A stretch of DNA of 11,141 nt from a virus (IMGVR_UViG_2563366948_000006:1-11141); one strand, 5' to 3'; shown: positions 1-8,630, numbered from the stretch's first letter. Notes: generated by a model from the sequence alone, not told the origin. Program-made: numbers and translations.

Positions 1-303
1 TTCTCCCAAACCAAGGTTTTCGAGAGCCGTTTTCACTGTGCCATCCGATTTGATATCGCCAAACGGATTCTTGCGGCTTAACAGCAGCGCACGAAGCGCG
101 GTAAGCAACTGGTCGTGCCGCGCCTTCTCCAGACTGGCACCGGATGTCTCCACCACGCTGCAAAGCTCTTCCTGCAACATGTCAAAGTAGTCATCATCCA
201 GATCGGTGGCAGGCGTGCCTGTCTGGGGGTTACCACGGGTAAAACCGTTTTTACCCGCGCCGAACTTATCCTTCTGCGCGGTTTTCGTGTCTATACGATG
301 CAT
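1..303 (-). CDS. Phage tail fibre protein, N-terminal fragment (gene runs off the window at position 1)
   Basis: Reverse-strand ORF with ATG at 303-301 and GGAG 7 nt upstream; translates [101 protein letters not shown]. The GNPxTGTPAT...QEEL stretch matches, from recall, the conserved N-terminal region of enterobacterial phage tail fibres. Absent from the ORF track because it is incomplete. Confidence 0.5.
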
Positions 304-306
304 GGA

Positions 307-1362
307 TTACTCCGGATATTTAAAAATTACGTAGGTATGCGACGGGCAGAGTTTGTTAAGCACGCACTCGACAACGGTGTCGCCCCAGATAAACAAGCGA
401 CGGTTAAGCTCCTGCTCCCAGTTCGTCACCCACGGCATCATCGTGTAGCGGACAAACTGAATCGCCTGCGCAGAAATATTGGAGAAGGTGGCTTTTTCGA
501 GGTCATTAATCATGTGCGCAGGAATATTGAAAATACCGGCAATCATTGAACGGTTCAGTTTCATCATGTCAATGATCTGAGCGTCAACTGGCGACACAGT
601 CAGTGCCTTGTAATCCAGATCGGCTGGCAGCAGCATGGTTTTGTTTTCCTGGCTGCGTAACGCCTGCGATGCCTTCTGCCACTGATCTTTAAGCCAGCCC
701 CAGCTGTCCTTATTGAGTCCGCTTTTAACGGATACTATCCCCGCCGGACGGGCATTACCGCTGAAGAAGCTTTCTGTGTATTTCTGACCGCTCATCCCCA
801 TGCCTATTGTTTCGGCATGTTGCATAATCGGACTCAGCCCCATCTTCTGATTATTACCCAGCGCACGGATGTGGATCATATCGTCGGGGCTGATCGCAAA
901 CGCCCCATATTCGTTGTACAAACCGTAGGTGTATCGACCACCAGTATTCATCAGCGTCGTTTCCCACGGCATACAGCAATCCAGGGATATGACTTCACCG
1001 CGACGATTACGTTTCACCCAGGTATACCCATTCCCCCAGCCAAGGATGTGACGTTGCTTCAGTTCGCGCCATTTGTAACTGGTTTGCCAGGTATTGGGCT
1101 CATCATGAACCAGATAAAACGCCGGATGATCGCGTGCGGGCTCAACCTTCCCATTGTGCCTGCGCATAACATGCAACGGCATCTGGGCAAGGCTGGAAGA
1201 CAGGACATAGATACAGGAATACACCGCAGCCAGTTTCATCGAAGTTTCAGGACTGACATAAACGTCTGCCCGGAACAGCCCATCAGTATCAACGGCATCC
1301 CCGGTTATCGGGGTGGAAGGATTCTCCAGTGATTTACTTCTGAACAGAGCATCAAGCAGCAC
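307..1362 (-). CDS. Phage portal protein, HK97 family; probably C-terminally truncated
   Basis: Translation contains portal-like blocks [62 protein letters not shown] and [16 protein letters not shown], and sits just downstream of TerL. Start placed at GTG 1362 (AAGGGGG-type SD upstream); the longest ORF starts at GTG 1392 and an in-frame ATG is at 1239. The protein ends about 25 aa after the [10 protein letters not shown] block, whereas HK97-family portals as I recall them continue well beyond it. Confidence 0.65.
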
Positions 1363-3860: not shown

Positions 3861-4211
3861 TCACTTGAGCCGCTCACGCGCGGTCTTCGCTGCGTGACAC
3901 GACCAGCACAGGCTTTCAAGGTTGCTGTCTTCATCAGTACCGCCGTGGGCCTTCGCCTTGATGTGGTCCACGCAGGACGCCTGCTTCACTATCGCCTGCC
4001 GTAGATGGTTCTGACACAGCCCTTTGTCGCGCTTAAGTATCCGCTCCCGGATGACTTCCCACTTTGTTCCGTATCCTCGCTGCTGCCGTGATTGACCAGG
4101 CTTGTAGGACTTCCAGCCTTCACCTTTGTGATTTTCACAGTAGCCAGATGGGTCTGTTGTGGTGTTGCGACAGCCGCGAACACGGCAAGCCTTTGGTGTG
4201 CGCGGTGGCAT
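3861..4211 (-). CDS. HNH endonuclease (packaging-associated)
   Basis: ATG at 4211 with GGGGAG upstream; 116 aa; cysteine-rich N-terminus (CRVRGCRN...CENH) and HNH core CQNH...VDHIKAKAHGGTDEDSNLESLCWSCHAAKT; located immediately upstream of TerS. The track ORF starts 13 codons earlier at a GTG. Confidence 0.82.
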   Translation of the reverse strand: MPPRTPKACRVRGCRNTTTDPSGYCENHKGEGWKSYKPGQSRQQRGYGTKWEVIRERILKRDKGLCQNHLRQAIVKQASCVDHIKAKAHGGTDEDSNLESLCWSCHAAKTARERLK

Positions 4212-4274
4212 ATTCACTCCCCAAAAAACGTATAGCATTATCGCAGACACTTAATGAATGCCTGCTGAATGCCA

Positions 4275-4472
4275 CTAATCGTCGAGTTGCAATACACCGT
4301 GCTCAAGTGACTCTGAGTAAGCGATCAGCCCTGTGTATTCAGGGATAATCTCGCCATCATCCGCTTCGAATTCCGGGATTGTACCAGTGGTGATGGTGTA
4401 TTGGGGCTGACCATCTTCTTTCGCGAATGCTGCTAGGTCTTCAATCTGCTTAGCTGTAAGAACTACTGTCAT
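4275..4472 (-). CDS. Small highly acidic protein (65 aa), function unknown
   Basis: ATG at 4472 with GAGGT 7 nt upstream (the track start at 4478 is an ATG two codons earlier). Translation MTVVLTAKQIEDLAAFAKEDGQPQYTITTGTIPEFEADDGEIIPEYTGLIAYSESLEHGVLQLDD has about 14 D/E versus 2 K and no R. Confidence 0.55.
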   Translation of the reverse strand: MTVVLTAKQIEDLAAFAKEDGQPQYTITTGTIPEFEADDGEIIPEYTGLIAYSESLEHGVLQLDD

Positions 4473-4490
4473 GCTCATACCTCAGTTGTT

Positions 4491-4513
4491 AAAAAGCCCC
4501 GCTATTGCGAGGC
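4491..4513 (-). terminator. Rho-independent terminator downstream of the moron membrane-protein gene
   Basis: Minus-strand RNA would read GCCUCGC-AAUA-GCGGGGC followed by UUUUU (7-bp stem with one G-U pair, 4-nt loop, U-tract), 24 nt after the stop of ORF 4537..4812. Confidence 0.55.
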
Positions 4514-4536
4514 TATGATTGACTAAAGTGATGCTG

Positions 4537-4812
4537 TCAGGTGTGGGTCCAAATGAATTTAACAATCCCAATAATGCTAGCCAGAACGCCAAAACCAAAA
4601 ATAAATTGACCACATACCCCTATGATTCCCGATGCAATGGCACCGGCATTTGTCTGAGCATTTTCGTTTATGCTCGCCCCCACTAGATACATAATCAAAC
4701 CAACTATGAGAGATGCGATAATCCAATGTTCCACTGCTAATACAATTACAATGCTCAAAATATCTGCTAAACCATCACTATGACCACTCACTGCATATCC
4801 TTGCTTTGACAT
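4537..4812 (-). CDS. Small integral membrane protein (91 aa, glycine-rich TM segments) carried on an AT-rich moron
   Basis: Translation MSKQGYAVSGHSDGLADILSIVIVLAVEHWIIASLIVGLIMYLVGASINENAQTNAGAIASGIIGVCGQFIFGFGVLASIIGIVKFIWTHT is hydrophobic with GxxxG-like spacing. The surrounding roughly 4480-4880 is visibly more AT-rich than the flanking phage genes; in-frame stops lie just upstream of the ATG; a TATAAT sits about 20 nt upstream and a terminator downstream. Confidence 0.6.
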   Translation of the reverse strand: MSKQGYAVSGHSDGLADILSIVIVLAVEHWIIASLIVGLIMYLVGASINENAQTNAGAIASGIIGVCGQFIFGFGVLASIIGIVKFIWTHT

Positions 4813-4878
4813 TTGAAAAATTCATCACTGGATTATAATTGTTTACACCCTTCATAGTCGTTCGAATATGATAAAAAA

Positions 4879-5415
4879 TCAATTGTGGGGGATAGCGTTA
4901 TTTGACTCTCTCAACGAGTCGTAAATACGTTCACACGTCATCCCGGCGGTGTAGCGTTCGTCAGCGATTCCAGCATAACGTTTAGCTTCTGCTGCAATAT
5001 CTCCGAGCATGTCGGCGAACATTCCGGCGTCGGCGTCGGTTGTTTTGCTTCGGACGGCAGCGGCAAGATCAGCGGTGTGCTTTGCGGCGTCCAGGCGTGC
5101 GGCAAGCTTTGTTGCTTCGGTACGCAACTGGCTAACAGTGGCAGACAGGCCAGCAGCAGTGGCAGCAGATTTAGCGGCTTGTGCTTGTGCATCTTTTACA
5201 GCCTCATCACGGGCAATTATGCGCCCTTGTTCAATCCAGCGTGCGGCAGTCTGCGCGTTCGCTTCCTGTGAAGATTCCATGCTATTGTGGTCAGCCCACT
5301 TCTTTTGCCAGCCCCGCTCACTCCAGATGTTCCCGGCAAGAAATGCACCAGCCAACATCAGCAAAACAATGATTGTTTTCCACCGCGCCTGAACAAAAGC
5401 AAAGACCGCTGTCAT
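4879..5415 (-). CDS. Rz: Rz-like i-spanin (inner-membrane spanin subunit)
   Basis: ATG at 5415 overlaps the endolysin stop (ATGA). N-terminal TM helix ([19 protein letters not shown]) followed by an Ala/Gln/Lys-rich coiled-coil-like periplasmic domain; position right after the endolysin; contains an embedded lipoprotein ORF. Confidence 0.72.
4938..5192 (-). CDS. Rz1: Rz1-like o-spanin (outer-membrane lipoprotein), embedded in Rz in another frame
   Basis: ATG at 5192; [23 protein letters not shown] carries a signal peptide with lipobox (LLAS-C), followed by a proline-rich mature region; wholly inside the Rz coding region, the classical embedded arrangement. Confidence 0.65.
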
Positions 5416-6029
5416 ACCAGCAACGCCGCCCGCGCTTTGTTATAACGACTATTTCTGTCAGCCAGTCCATTCTGGCCACCGTTGATGATCTGCGTTACAC
5501 GGACAACATCACCTGAATACATCAGACAACCACGTAATGTGAAATACCATGCAGCAGAACGGGCTGCATGTTTCTCCTGTGTCAGCAACTCTGGTGTGCT
5601 GATCAGATCCAACTTCAGCGCCGCACCGCATTTGGCGTAGTTCTCGCGGCCGGTGATTTGAAGCAGGCCACGACCGCGATATTTCCAGCCGTCACCCTGG
5701 CTGTTATTCCCCATGCGGTCACCATAAACCAGATTGGCTATTTGCGGCTGGTGGGCTACCTGCTTACCATCGACACGCCCCAGCATTTCACACTGATAAG
5801 GCGTCAGGCGTTTACTAAAGGTTTTCTTCAGCCCGTCTACCGAGTAGTTGAAGCTTTCCACCAGCGAGGTAAAACCAGCAGATTCATGCCCAACTTGTGC
5901 AATGAACATGGCCTGATCGTTAACTGCTGTGATTCCAAACTCTTTCATTGCAGCATCAATGTGCGGAAACCAGCGCGCAGCCAGCCCGGCGCTAATACCA
6001 GCCGCCTTTTGAAATAATTGTTGGTTCAT
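5412..6029 (-). CDS. Endolysin, glycoside hydrolase family 19 (chitinase-like lysozyme)
   Basis: 205 aa with GH19-type blocks [35 protein letters not shown] and AAWYFTL; start ATG overlaps the upstream holin stop (TAATG); followed by Rz/Rz1. Confidence 0.85.
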
Positions 6030-6310
6030 TAGTGCCTCAGATGATCAACCAGACGTGCAACGTTGCCTCTGACGGCCACCAGCACGGAAAGAAAAATAGT
6101 GTTCGCCACGATAATGGGCCATGAGGAATGGGGATAAATCCCACAGAGATAGGCCAACGGAACAGCACTGTATGTAACAGTAATCAGCCAGGCTAAACGT
6201 GAAACCCAAGGACGATGCCGCGAATAACCACGACGATAAAACATCAGAGTAATAACAACACAAGCACATAACAGCGCATTTATAGTTGCTGTCGGGTCAT
6301 TTAGCTCCAC
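6029..6310 (-). CDS. Putative holin (93 aa, three predicted TM helices)
   Basis: GTG start at 6310 with GGAGG 5 nt upstream; hydrophobic segments INALLCACVVITLMFY, LAWLITVTYSAVPLAYLCGIY and WPIIVANTIFLSVLVAV; charged C-terminus; immediately upstream of, and coupled to, the endolysin gene. Confidence 0.55.
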   Translation of the reverse strand: MELNDPTATINALLCACVVITLMFYRRGYSRHRPWVSRLAWLITVTYSAVPLAYLCGIYPHSSWPIIVANTIFLSVLVAVRGNVARLVDHLRH

Positions 6311-6626
6311 CTGAACCTCCCCGGCGCGTTATGAGCGCCACCAGCGAGCCGATATCCTGATTATTCAGGAACGTCAGGATTTTAACGGCTAAAGCAGAGA
6401 CGATTACGGCACCAATAGCATCCAGAGGTTTATCACTGTATCCGGTCAAGTGCGCCAGCTTGGAGCCAACCAACCCAGAGCAAAGGATCCCGGCAATATA
6501 TGACACGATAAAATATGCCAGTCGGCGCGATGCACTCAGATCTGCTGCTGTTGCTATGTAGAATACCGTCCTTTTTACAAAACAGAGAAGAGCATCACCG
6601 GACGACGGGCTCATAACCCAATCCAT
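6297..6626 (-). CDS. Holin-like membrane protein (start uncertain: GTG 6641, ATG 6626 or ATG 6614)
   Basis: At least two TM segments (LAYFIVSYIAGILCSGLVG, LDAIGAVIVSALAVKILTFL) and a charged C-terminal tail QDIGSLVALITRRGGSGGAK that resembles, from recall, the C-terminus of lambda S; two closely spaced in-frame Met codons (MDWVMSPSS) could allow a dual-start arrangement. No strong SD at any candidate start. Confidence 0.5.
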   Translation of the reverse strand: MDWVMSPSSGDALLCFVKRTVFYIATAADLSASRRLAYFIVSYIAGILCSGLVGSKLAHLTGYSDKPLDAIGAVIVSALAVKILTFLNNQDIGSLVALITRRGGSGGAK

Positions 6627-6665
6627 CCGGGCGGCTGCCACCGCAGGTGTTCTTCTCTGTTTTGT
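6577..6665. repeat. 18-bp inverted repeat (17/18 match) separated by 53 bp at the lysis / early-operon junction
   Basis: Plus strand 6577-6594 ACAAAACAGAGAAGAGCA; the reverse complement of 6648-6665 is ACAAAACAGAGAAGAACA (15 bp perfect core). Left arm lies in the 5' end of the holin-like ORF, right arm in the divergent intergenic region upstream of yfdP. Confidence 0.7.
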
Positions 6666-6713
6666 GGAGAAACTAATCGGCCTTGCAGGGTCGATATGAT
6701 GAGGAGCAGCAAA

Positions 6714-7076
6714 ATGGCTAGCGAACGCAGTACTGATGTGCAGGCATTTATCGGGGAGCTGGACGGCGGCGTATTTGAAACCAAAATCGGCGCAGTTCTC
6801 AGTGAAGTCGCTTCCGGTGTGATGAACACGAAAACCAAAGGTAAGGTCTCACTCAACCTGGAAATCGAACCATTTGATGAGAACCGTGTGAAAATCAAAC
6901 ACAAACTCTCATATGTTCGCCCGACTAACCGCGGGAAAATTTCCGAAGAAGACACCACCGAAACGCCGATGTATGTCAATCGCGGTGGTCGCCTGACTAT
7001 TCTGCAGGAAGACCAGGGACAGTTACTGACTCTTGCCGGTGAACCTGACGGAAAACTCCGCGCAGCAGGTCGTTAA
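6714..7076 (+). CDS. yfdP: YfdP-like conserved prophage early protein (120 aa), function unknown
   Basis: ATG at 6714 with GAGGAG upstream gives 120 aa (MASERSTDVQAFIGELDGG...); first gene of a same-strand operon whose sizes (120, 274, 178, 120 aa) and order match E. coli K-12 KplE1 yfdP-yfdQ-yfdR-yfdS as I recall them. Confidence 0.55.
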   Translation: MASERSTDVQAFIGELDGGVFETKIGAVLSEVASGVMNTKTKGKVSLNLEIEPFDENRVKIKHKLSYVRPTNRGKISEEDTTETPMYVNRGGRLTILQEDQGQLLTLAGEPDGKLRAAGR

Positions 7077-7141
7077 TATCGTTTTTAATTAACTGATTAT
7101 TTATCTCATCACTGAATATCTTTATATAGTGAGGACTTATT

Positions 7142-7966
7142 ATGTCTCAGAACTTAGACGCAACCGCAATTAATCAAATCCATGCCCTTATTTCTGCTCA
7201 GGGTGTTAATGAAATTATCAGTAAGATTGGTGCCGATGCTGTGGCATTGCCTGAGAATTTCCGCATTCATGATCTGGAAAAATTTAATTTAAATCGCTTC
7301 CGTTTCCGTGGTGCGCTTTCCACTGCCAGCATCGATGACTTTACCCGTTATTCTAAAGATCTTGCAGATGAAGGCACCCGCTGCTTTATCGATGCTGATA
7401 ATATGCGTGCCGTCAGTGTGCTTAACCTGGGTACTATTGATGAACCAGGTCACGCAGATAACACCGCCACACTCAAACTGAAAAAGACAGCACCGTTCTC
7501 TGCTCTGTTGTCTGTTAACGGCGAGCGTAACTCCCAGAAGTCACTGGCAGAATGGATTGAAGACTGGGCCGACTATCTTGTGGGCTTTGATGCTAATGGT
7601 GACGCTATTCAGGCAACAAAAGCGGCTGCGGCTGTCCGTAAAATCACGATTGAAGCAAACCAGACCGCTGATTTTGAAGATAATGACTTCAGCGGCAAAC
7701 GCTCCCTGATGGAGTCTGTCGAAGCGAAGACCAAAGACATTATGCCAGTGGCATTTGAATTTAAATGCGTTCCGTTTGAAGGTCTGAAAGAACGTCCGTT
7801 TAAATTACGCCTCAGTATTATCACTGGCGATCGTCCTGTACTGGTTCTGCGCATTATTCAGCTGGAGGCGGTGCAGGAAGAAATGGCTAACGAATTTCGT
7901 GATCTGCTTGTTGAGAAATTCAAGGACAGCAAAGTAGAAACCTTTATTGGTACTTTCACCGCCTGA
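7142..7966 (+). CDS. yfdQ: YfdQ-like protein (DUF2303-type, 274 aa), function unknown
   Basis: ATG at 7142 with GAGGA 7 nt upstream; 274 aa beginning [20 protein letters not shown]; size and position match K-12 YfdQ from recall. Confidence 0.6.
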
Positions 7967-8093: not shown

Positions 8094-8630
8094 ATGTCAT
8101 TTATTAAAACTTTTTCCGGGAAGCATTTTTATTATGACAGGATAAATAAAGACGACATCGATATTAACGATATCGCGGTTTCCCTTTCAAATATCTGTCG
8201 CTTTGCCGGTCATCTTTCGCACTTCTACAGCGTCGCCCAACATGCGGTTCTTTGCAGCCAGCTGGTGCCGCAGGAATTTGCTTTTGAAGCGTTAATGCAT
8301 GATGCAACAGAAGCGTATTGCCAAGACATCCCCGCACCACTGAAACGACTTCTTCCTGACTATAAACGGATGGAAGAAAAAATAGACGCCGTAATCCGTG
8401 AGAAATACGGGTTACCTCCTGTTATGAGCACGCCAGTGAAATATGCCGATCTCATCATGCTGGCAACCGAACGCCGCGATCTCGGGCTTGATGATGGCTC
8501 TTTCTGGCCTGTGCTGGAAGGTATCCCGGCAACAGAGATGTTCAACGTGATTCCACTGGCTCCAGGCCATGCCTACGGGATGTTTATGGAACGCTTTAAC
8601 GAATTATCGGAGTTACGCAAATGCGCATGA
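8094..8630 (+). CDS. yfdR: HD-domain phosphohydrolase, YfdR-like (178 aa)
   Basis: ATG at 8094 with GGAGAA upstream gives 178 aa; HD-domain metal-binding signature visible (GHLSHFYSVAQH ... LMHDATEAY). The track ORF starts 9 codons earlier at 8067. Confidence 0.7.
   Translation: MSFIKTFSGKHFYYDRINKDDIDINDIAVSLSNICRFAGHLSHFYSVAQHAVLCSQLVPQEFAFEALMHDATEAYCQDIPAPLKRLLPDYKRMEEKIDAVIREKYGLPPVMSTPVKYADLIMLATERRDLGLDDGSFWPVLEGIPATEMFNVIPLAPGHAYGMFMERFNELSELRKCA

Follow-up and report, generated by a model that had tools for sequence, protein, structure and literature searches.

The stretch of DNA analysed here, 11,141 nt long and referred to below as the window, carries part of an SfV/CPS-53-like E. 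coli prophage, in which a small cassette (4491-4878, minus strand) is located between the Rz/Rz1 genes and the packaging module. The cassette, lysis and packaging genes concerned all lie on the minus strand and, read 5' to 3' along it, the features of the region are as follows:

6297-6641, minus strand: Phage_holin_8 gene, the first in this order
6029-6310, minus strand: Phage_holin_3_7 gene, following the Phage_holin_8 gene
5412-6029, minus strand: GH19 endolysin gene, following the Phage_holin_3_7 gene
4879-5415, minus strand: Rz, a DUF2514 i-spanin gene, upstream neighbour of ORF84, with its stop codon at 4879-4881
4938-5192, minus strand: embedded Rz1 lipoprotein ORF, inside Rz
4523-4878, minus strand: moron-specific DNA (AT-rich promoter region plus ORF), 356 bp, missing from related prophages
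4792-4878, minus strand: intergenic region from the Rz stop codon to the GTG start of ORF84, 87 nt, 30% GC
4856-4861, minus strand: weak, tentative -35-like hexamer ACGACT, 18 nt upstream of the -10 hexamer
4832-4837, minus strand: consensus -10 hexamer TATAAT, 40 nt upstream of GTG 4791
4798-4802, minus strand: Shine-Dalgarno AAGGA, 6 nt before GTG 4791, with GGA kept in all lineages
4537-4791, minus strand: ORF84, with a GTG start, encoding a predicted two-helix membrane protein of 84 aa (phrog_28582)
4491-4514, minus strand: terminator-like hairpin (8-bp stem, AATA loop) plus T5 tract, a shared mosaic joint
4275-4478, minus strand: orf67, a 67-aa acidic ORF (phrog_9518), downstream neighbour of ORF84 and outside the moron

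The packaging module continues after orf67 with an HNH endonuclease, a P27-family TerS, TerL and part of the portal gene. Between positions 4200 and 5000 the window shares 99.6-100% identity with prophages found in 10 of the 5426 complete E. coli genomes. One of these, the prophage of strain ECZP248, adjoins a tRNA-Thr gene adjacent to proA and combines an HK97-type head with a contractile tail of the Mu type. Two observations concern the neighbours of ORF84. The Rz1-type o-spanin ORF, proline-rich and with the lipobox LLASC, is embedded in the DUF2514 Rz gene in its +1 frame, and goes unannotated in the RefSeq entry for the identical ECZP248 prophage. On the other side, orf67 encodes a very acidic product and probably begins, in agreement with RefSeq, at ATG 4472 (65 aa). 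It is always preceded by a GCCTCGC...GCGGGGC-T hairpin and the leader AACAACTGAGG, and at least 38 E. coli genomes, among them that of Nissle 1917, as well as phage mEp390 keep it behind the lysis cassette.

The window represents what is left of a cryptic prophage after two internal deletions. At the junction 6566/6567 the late region is fused to DNA that in intact CPS-53/SfV-like prophages lies upstream of yfdP, in the early left arm. The first 39 codons of the holin_8 gene are gone, and the genes for the Q antiterminator, replication and immunity, together with the late promoter, are missing. This junction was not found in complete E. coli genomes, none of which covers more than 55% of the window. 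The second junction is placed around 390-404, as window positions 1-391 match ymfQ/tail-fibre DNA, the match to the portal gene runs from 390 onward, and the portal ORF (307-1392) ends in unrelated residues. The head genes and most tail genes appear to have been deleted at this point, supporting that the element is cryptic. As Q and the late promoter are missing, the late operon is left without an evident promoter, and the candidate promoter of ORF84 itself would be the only evident local route of expression in the remnant.

The segment occupied by ORF84 and its upstream region differs in composition from the DNA around it. The GC content of 4523-4878 is 38.2%, against 49.7% for the whole window, which places it among the lowest 0.3% of segments of equal size, and the GC3 of ORF84 is 0.34, against 0.49-0.67 in Rz, the endolysin gene, orf67, HNH, TerS and TerL. 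Both GC content and GC3 thus confirm the first-pass annotation, made from the sequence alone, which had described this segment as lower in GC than the flanking lysis and packaging genes. Homologues of ORF84 show 39-45% GC, in loci of 49-54% GC.

Both RefSeq and the first-pass annotation place the start of ORF84 at ATG 4812 (4537-4812), giving a 91-aa product. Comparison with related sequences points to a shorter protein. Among 21 database relatives, 17 are 84 aa long and two are 85 aa long; the gene at locus L019, which differs from that of the window by a single amino acid over 84 codons, has nevertheless ATT instead of the upstream ATG, and the in-frame upstream ATG is also missing in L006, L033, L034 and L035. 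A GTG or ATG at codon 8 is kept in all loci, with a GGA-containing Shine-Dalgarno sequence 6-8 nt upstream. From these lengths, the missing ATGs and the conserved start at codon 8 with its Shine-Dalgarno, ORF84 almost certainly starts at GTG 4791 and encodes 84 aa, and the RefSeq start codon is probably wrong.

Pairwise dN/dS values of ORF84 against its homologues range from 0.02 to 0.39, and in the comparison with L019 dS is 0.29 and dN is 0.005. Judging from these comparisons, ORF84 is a real gene under purifying selection, and the possibility of a non-gene or an antisense ORF was ruled out by the dN/dS values and the conserved frame. Copies with frameshifts or truncations were also observed in some prophages (L020 of IMG/VR, and proteins P0018, P0020, P0021 and P0024), so that ORF84 is occasionally pseudogenised.

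Downstream of ORF84, the hairpin AGCCTCGC-AATA-GCGGGGCT occupies 4514-4495 of the minus strand, and the run of T ends at 4491. In its 67-nt context the predicted folding energy is -21.1 kcal/mol, with a z score of -4.6 compared to shuffled controls. A simple terminator scan did not list this hairpin, because only 4 T are left after the maximal stem is formed, which falls under the T-count rule of the scan. No known RNA element or tRNA was found in the cassette region. The hairpin is present downstream of ORF84 in every locus of the close family, and two of its base pairs show compensatory changes. Of the terminator that had been assigned to this segment as its own, the hairpin and its T5 tract were confirmed as sequence features, but the hairpin does not belong to this segment exclusively: in prophages lacking ORF84 an identical hairpin ends the lysis cassette and, with an identical leader, precedes orf67. 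The hairpin of the Enterobacter subgroup lacks the U tract and is followed by TTGATAA. In CP55_Sichuan (L032), the identical hairpin sequence GAGCCTCGCAATAGCGGGGCTTTTTAACAACTGAGG overlaps the stop codon of Rz1/lysC. In our reading of these sequences, the hairpin would be the terminator at the end of the lysis cassette, doubling as a joint for the exchange of cassettes in this slot. A separate arrangement was observed in an Enterobacter bugandensis prophage (L006), in which the hairpin occurs twice, at 4630-4652 and around 6280-6305, once behind the lysis cassette and once behind ORF84. Between them, at 4670-5539, there is a gene for a 289-aa signal-peptide protein with its own terminator, a layout of tandem cassettes in the post-lysis slot.

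Upstream of ORF84, TATAAT occurs a single time in the 11-kb window, where about 4 occurrences are expected, so that its presence is not above chance, and the weight of this hexamer comes from its conservation and not from its single occurrence. For this comparison, the close family was defined as the loci with protein identity of at least 64% (11 loci, with at least six different upstream contexts). All 11 carry TATAAT (TATACT in two of them) 33-40 nt upstream of the start, whereas the remaining intergenic DNA cannot be aligned between subgroups and synonymous sites between subgroups are saturated. The comparative evidence that TATAAT is a functional -10 element can thus be considered good. 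The first-pass annotation had located this hexamer about 20 nt upstream of the ORF; the element itself and its conservation were confirmed, but its distance to the start is 40 nt. With the start at GTG 4791, this distance would leave room for a leader of around 33 nt carrying the AAGGA sequence. TATAAT was not present in the two most distant relatives, L024 and L025, in which the gene begins 11-22 nt after the preceding one.

The -35 region is less clear. The hexamer of the window matches the consensus in 3 of 6 positions; its nnGACn core, shared within the E. coli-like subgroup, is present in the window, L019, L034 and L035, and L033 has TTGAAC. A consensus promoter scan of the window did not call the ORF84 promoter site, and for this reason the -35 assignment is tentative.

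The distribution of ORF84 was analysed in complete genomes and in sequence collections. The gene is carried by 10 of the 5426 complete E. coli genomes, whereas 28 further genomes and phage mEp390 match only window positions ~4235-4522, that is, orf67 and the hairpin. The megablast matches of prophages without ORF84 stop at query position 322-323, equivalent to 4521-4522 of the window, and the annotation of L002, L003 and L032 supports that the moron-specific DNA is absent from them. CP55_Sichuan has the same two holin proteins as ECZP248, without any difference, and closely related packaging genes; there Rz1/lysC is followed by the hairpin and then by orf67, with no ORF84, and QEC11-421 shows the same Rz1-hairpin-orf67 order, also without it. 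In DA33137 the holins and the endolysin are again the same, and other small genes fill the slot. ORF84 is absent as well from Nissle 1917 (L003), which has a different filler of around 190 nt.

This Nissle 1917 filler (~4290-4450, minus strand) is GC-rich and contains an unannotated ORF of 45 codons with a hydrophobic beginning (MLLVFVLLSIWLC...); this slot, from Rz to the hairpin, seems to be a place where small membrane ORFs accumulate. There is a second variable slot between orf67 and HNH, with an opposite-strand ORF of 113-116 aa in L002 (3576-3926) and L032 (4165-4506, plus strand), which the window lacks.

TATAAT, ORF84 and the hairpin travel together through at least six flanking contexts, in prophages of E. 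coli and Enterobacter. ORF84 precedes different terminases and packaging modules, and follows three types of lysis cassette:

holin_8, holin_3_7 and GH19
holin_2 and GH24
an unclassified 104-aa protein (without Pfam match, presumed holin), GH24 and DUF2514

In 11 of 13 contexts a lysis cassette of the same orientation directly precedes ORF84. Among more distant relatives, P0022 (43% identical, locus L024) is located in a 2-kb island with 34-42% GC, inside a myovirus tail/baseplate module with 55-65% GC, and P0023 (50% identical) follows a small lipoprotein gene in a contig with 38.5% GC. The L024 island (5250-7250) encodes signal-peptide proteins of 112 and 124 aa, P0022 and a 185-aa membrane protein, and looks like a multi-gene cargo.

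The family is small. A tblastn search against 50,697 GenBank phage records gave no match to ORF84, which is known only from prophages and metagenomes. An exhaustive phmmer search against 1.84 billion cluster representatives gave 5 matches, and a profile search of 5.8 billion proteins gave around 25 clusters, none of them annotated and all from E. coli, Enterobacter or metagenomes. The gene was detected in 2 of 185,579 species-representative genomes and in 12 loci of IMG/VR.

The structure of the protein was modelled with AlphaFold2 from an alignment of 18 sequences, giving helices at residues 5-44 and 48-83 with a mean pLDDT of 85, in agreement with the hydropathy profile. ORF84 is thus predicted to be a helical hairpin of two hydrophobic helices of ~30 residues, in line with the earlier description of the product as almost entirely transmembrane. 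The helices are joined by the polar loop N-E-N-A-Q-T-N-x-G-A, whose invariant form across the family is N-x-x-A-x-T-x-x-G-A-x-x-S-G. Further residues invariant in the family are (E/Q)-H-W-I-x-A-S-L, halfway along helix 1, and, within helix 2, F-G and K-F-x-W.

The same annotation had called the product a glycine-zipper protein with GxxxG-type spacing, and this part does not hold. No GxxxG was found in the helices of ORF84, and no GxxxGxxxG anywhere in the protein; the sole strict GxxxG is at residues 3-7, in the soluble N-terminus outside the membrane. The best small-residue motif is G50xxxS54xxxG58, accompanied by GxxG repeats, and the glycines after G55 (G58, G61 and G66) are not kept in the distant relatives P0022 and P0023. 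Comparison with the Gly-zipper Pfam families gave no match even at E = 10. As its helices lack GxxxG, ORF84 is not a glycine zipper.

With respect to its family, ORF84 matches phrog_28582 over the full length (residues 1-91 to positions 1-91 of the 91-position profile, E = 3.5e-54); this family has no annotation, and its profile includes the probably spurious N-terminal extension of 7 residues. Scans of ORF84 and 17 relatives with Pfam, NCBIfam and PADLOC gave nothing significant, and with the defence profiles of PADLOC-DB 2.0 none of the 18 family members gave a match at E <= 10. The matches to DUF4064 (best E = 0.025) and YiaAB (E = 0.18) were rejected as weak matches of hydrophobic composition. 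Foldseek searches against BFVD and the PDB returned only generic helical hairpins, with E >= 0.1. In a PDB profile search, fragments of the NAC region of alpha-synuclein matched residues 41-78 (E = 0.006-1), due to G/A/V-rich composition and not to homology. No homology was found between ORF84 and characterised pore, exclusion, abortive-infection, toxin or immunity proteins, and no paper was found in a literature search with its RefSeq accession, WP_000043167.

Morons were described as additions with respect to related phages, with deviant GC, whose own promoter and terminator permit expression from a repressed prophage (Cumby, Davidson and Maxwell, PMC3594210; after Juhala et al. 2000). The segment studied here is extra DNA, missing at the same position in close relatives that include prophages with identical holins and near-identical terminase genes, and its GC deviates in the window and in the homologous loci as well. 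The presence/absence polymorphism, the deviant GC, the -10 conserved in 11 of 11 loci and the conserved hairpin with compensatory changes, taken together, strongly support at the sequence level that the segment is a phage moron encoding a small membrane protein, an ordinary example and not a new kind of system. This agrees with the initial proposal of a moron in the Rz-to-terminase slot, and an architecture composed of promoter, ORF84 and hairpin is considered highly probable.

The closest known parallel is gene 15 of phage HK97, a moron whose product, gp15, acts in superinfection exclusion (Juhala et al. 2000; Cumby et al. 2012, reviewed in PMC3594210). Like ORF84, gene 15 is a small gene with its own promoter (a candidate one in the case of ORF84) and a downstream hairpin, is located between essential late genes in the orientation of the late operon, has deviant GC and is missing from close relatives; in the HK97 record the gene is at 8203-8391 and the terminator at 8398-8422. 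Furthermore, both products are small, and gp15 is made from the prophage and located in the inner membrane, as would be the case for ORF84 by prediction. The two proteins differ in that gp15 has 62 aa, one TM segment and a charged C-terminal tail, whereas ORF84 has 84 aa, two TM segments and almost no charged residues, and in that gene 15 belongs to the tail operon, whereas ORF84 follows the lysis cassette (P0022, a relative of it, is found in a tail module). Homology to gp15 was discarded, with an hhalign probability of 0.4%.

A second parallel is T4 Imm (83 aa), a protein of immunity to superinfection, which resembles ORF84 in size, in having two hydrophobic helices and in the inner-membrane architecture that is predicted for ORF84, and acts at the inner membrane at the point of DNA entry, the site proposed for ORF84. 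Nevertheless, Imm is encoded by an early gene of a virulent phage and has a charged C-terminal tail, in contrast to the prophage moron, and homology was also discarded in this case (hhalign probability of 0.8%, and no Pfam match of ORF84 to any family).

With regard to position, the lambda bor gene is a moron between Rz and cos/nu1 that is expressed from the prophage. As the first-pass annotation had pointed out, ORF84 occupies this same slot, which in lambdoid phages extends from the spanin genes to the packaging genes. However, bor is transcribed from the other strand and its product is an outer-membrane lipoprotein that serves in serum resistance, while ORF84 is co-oriented with the late operon and its product is predicted to be an inner-membrane hairpin that is not a lipoprotein.

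The position of ORF84 right after the spanin gene or genes, co-oriented with them in E. coli and Enterobacter and behind three types of lysis cassette, and a size and two-TM architecture that resemble class II holins, could also be explained if the gene were the last one of the late lysis cassette and its product an accessory of lysis (for example an antiholin, a two-TM protein of holin type, or a factor modulating lysis timing or the spanins) expressed only from the Q-dependent late promoter, the TATAAT being incidental. However, prophages with identical holins (WP_000422366 and WP_001283167) and the GH19 endolysin lack ORF84, whose GC and GC3 are unlike those of the lysis genes, and the -10 is kept within non-coding DNA that has otherwise diverged. 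ORF84 has no holin match in Pfam or PHROG, whereas both neighbouring holins match strongly, and its C-terminus, KFIWTHT, has a single Lys and no charged tail of the type usual in holins. For its lack of a family match, this single C-terminal Lys and its dispensability beside the same holins and endolysin, membership in the class II holins was rejected. The varied lysis cassettes, the absence beside identical holins and the positions of P0022, in a tail-module island, and of P0023 argue for a mobile cargo rather than for a component of lysis, in such a way that a role in lysis, which is kept in consideration because of the post-lysis position, is regarded as quite unlikely.

Other explanations share the moron architecture and differ in the role of the protein. 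ORF84 could be a host-fitness or lysogenic-conversion factor not directed against phages, such as an orphan bacteriocin or microcin immunity protein, or a protein that modulates an inner-membrane transporter of the host or its stress response, having in mind that microcin and colicin immunity proteins are typically small, with two TM segments and 70-110 aa. Lambda Bor and Lom are analogues in logic, although ORF84 would be located in the inner membrane, and in two loci, L006 and L024, its neighbours include further cargo genes for secreted or membrane proteins. On the other hand, there is no bacteriocin gene nearby, the sequence is unrelated to any named family, and the gene is very rare and restricted to phages (2 of 185,579 species representatives; around 25 clusters in 5.8 billion proteins), all of which makes this explanation unlikely. 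Alternatively, the protein could oligomerise through its small-residue face and the membrane-embedded Glu-His-Trp motif to form a gated pore, conducting ions or protons, that depolarises the cell on phage attack in the manner of abortive infection, or act as a small membrane toxin, a proposal consistent with the invariant (E/Q)-H-W in the middle of helix 1, the abundance of G, A and S in helix 2 and the two long, amphipathic-to-hydrophobic helices. Its top PDB fold matches are hairpins of alpha-pore-forming toxins, but these are not significant (E ~1) and correspond to generic helical hairpins. The cassette has no partner, antitoxin or sensor gene, a toxic pore would not be easily compatible with a constitutive consensus -10, the PADLOC scan gave no match, and most copies of ORF84 are intact and conserved, in spite of the existence of frameshifted ones; a pore or toxin is accordingly judged very unlikely.

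Our preferred explanation for the role of the moron is superinfection exclusion, in which ORF84 would block the entry of the genome of superinfecting phages at the inner membrane. This proposal is drawn by analogy with gp15 and T4 Imm and from the conserved polar loop and the mid-membrane E-H-W, two features which suggest a specific interaction rather than bulk effects on the membrane. Against it, neither the PADLOC, Pfam and NCBIfam scans, nor the fold searches, nor the hhalign comparisons with gp15 and Imm connected ORF84 with exclusion. It is put forward tentatively, as a possibility that we hold at somewhat below an even chance; for the architecture and this role taken together, the chances appear evenly balanced. 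In the lysogen, sigma-70 RNA polymerase would start near 4825 (minus strand) and produce a transcript of around 335 nt, stopping at the hairpin around 4491, and during lytic growth Q-modified polymerase would read through from the late promoter. The protein would then be inserted in the cytoplasmic membrane and would protect the lysogen at the step of genome entry. A more ambitious version, in which ORF84 represents a new class of prophage inner-membrane defence, with E-H-W and the small-residue face acting as a gated proton or ion pathway or as a clamp on an entry factor located in the host inner membrane to block DNA entry or cause abortive depolarisation, and with the GCCTCGC-N4-GCGGGGC-T hairpin as a joint for cassette shuffling, is considered improbable.

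The ORF84 family is tiny and strictly phage-borne, and these findings leave current understanding unchallenged. The locus offers a clean example of a promoter-ORF-hairpin unit that moves between phage backgrounds, with the terminator hairpin as the shared joint. If it is expressed from the prophage, ORF84 would add one more uncharacterised small membrane protein to the cargo of temperate phages, a class that has repeatedly been found to encode superinfection exclusion or other fitness traits.
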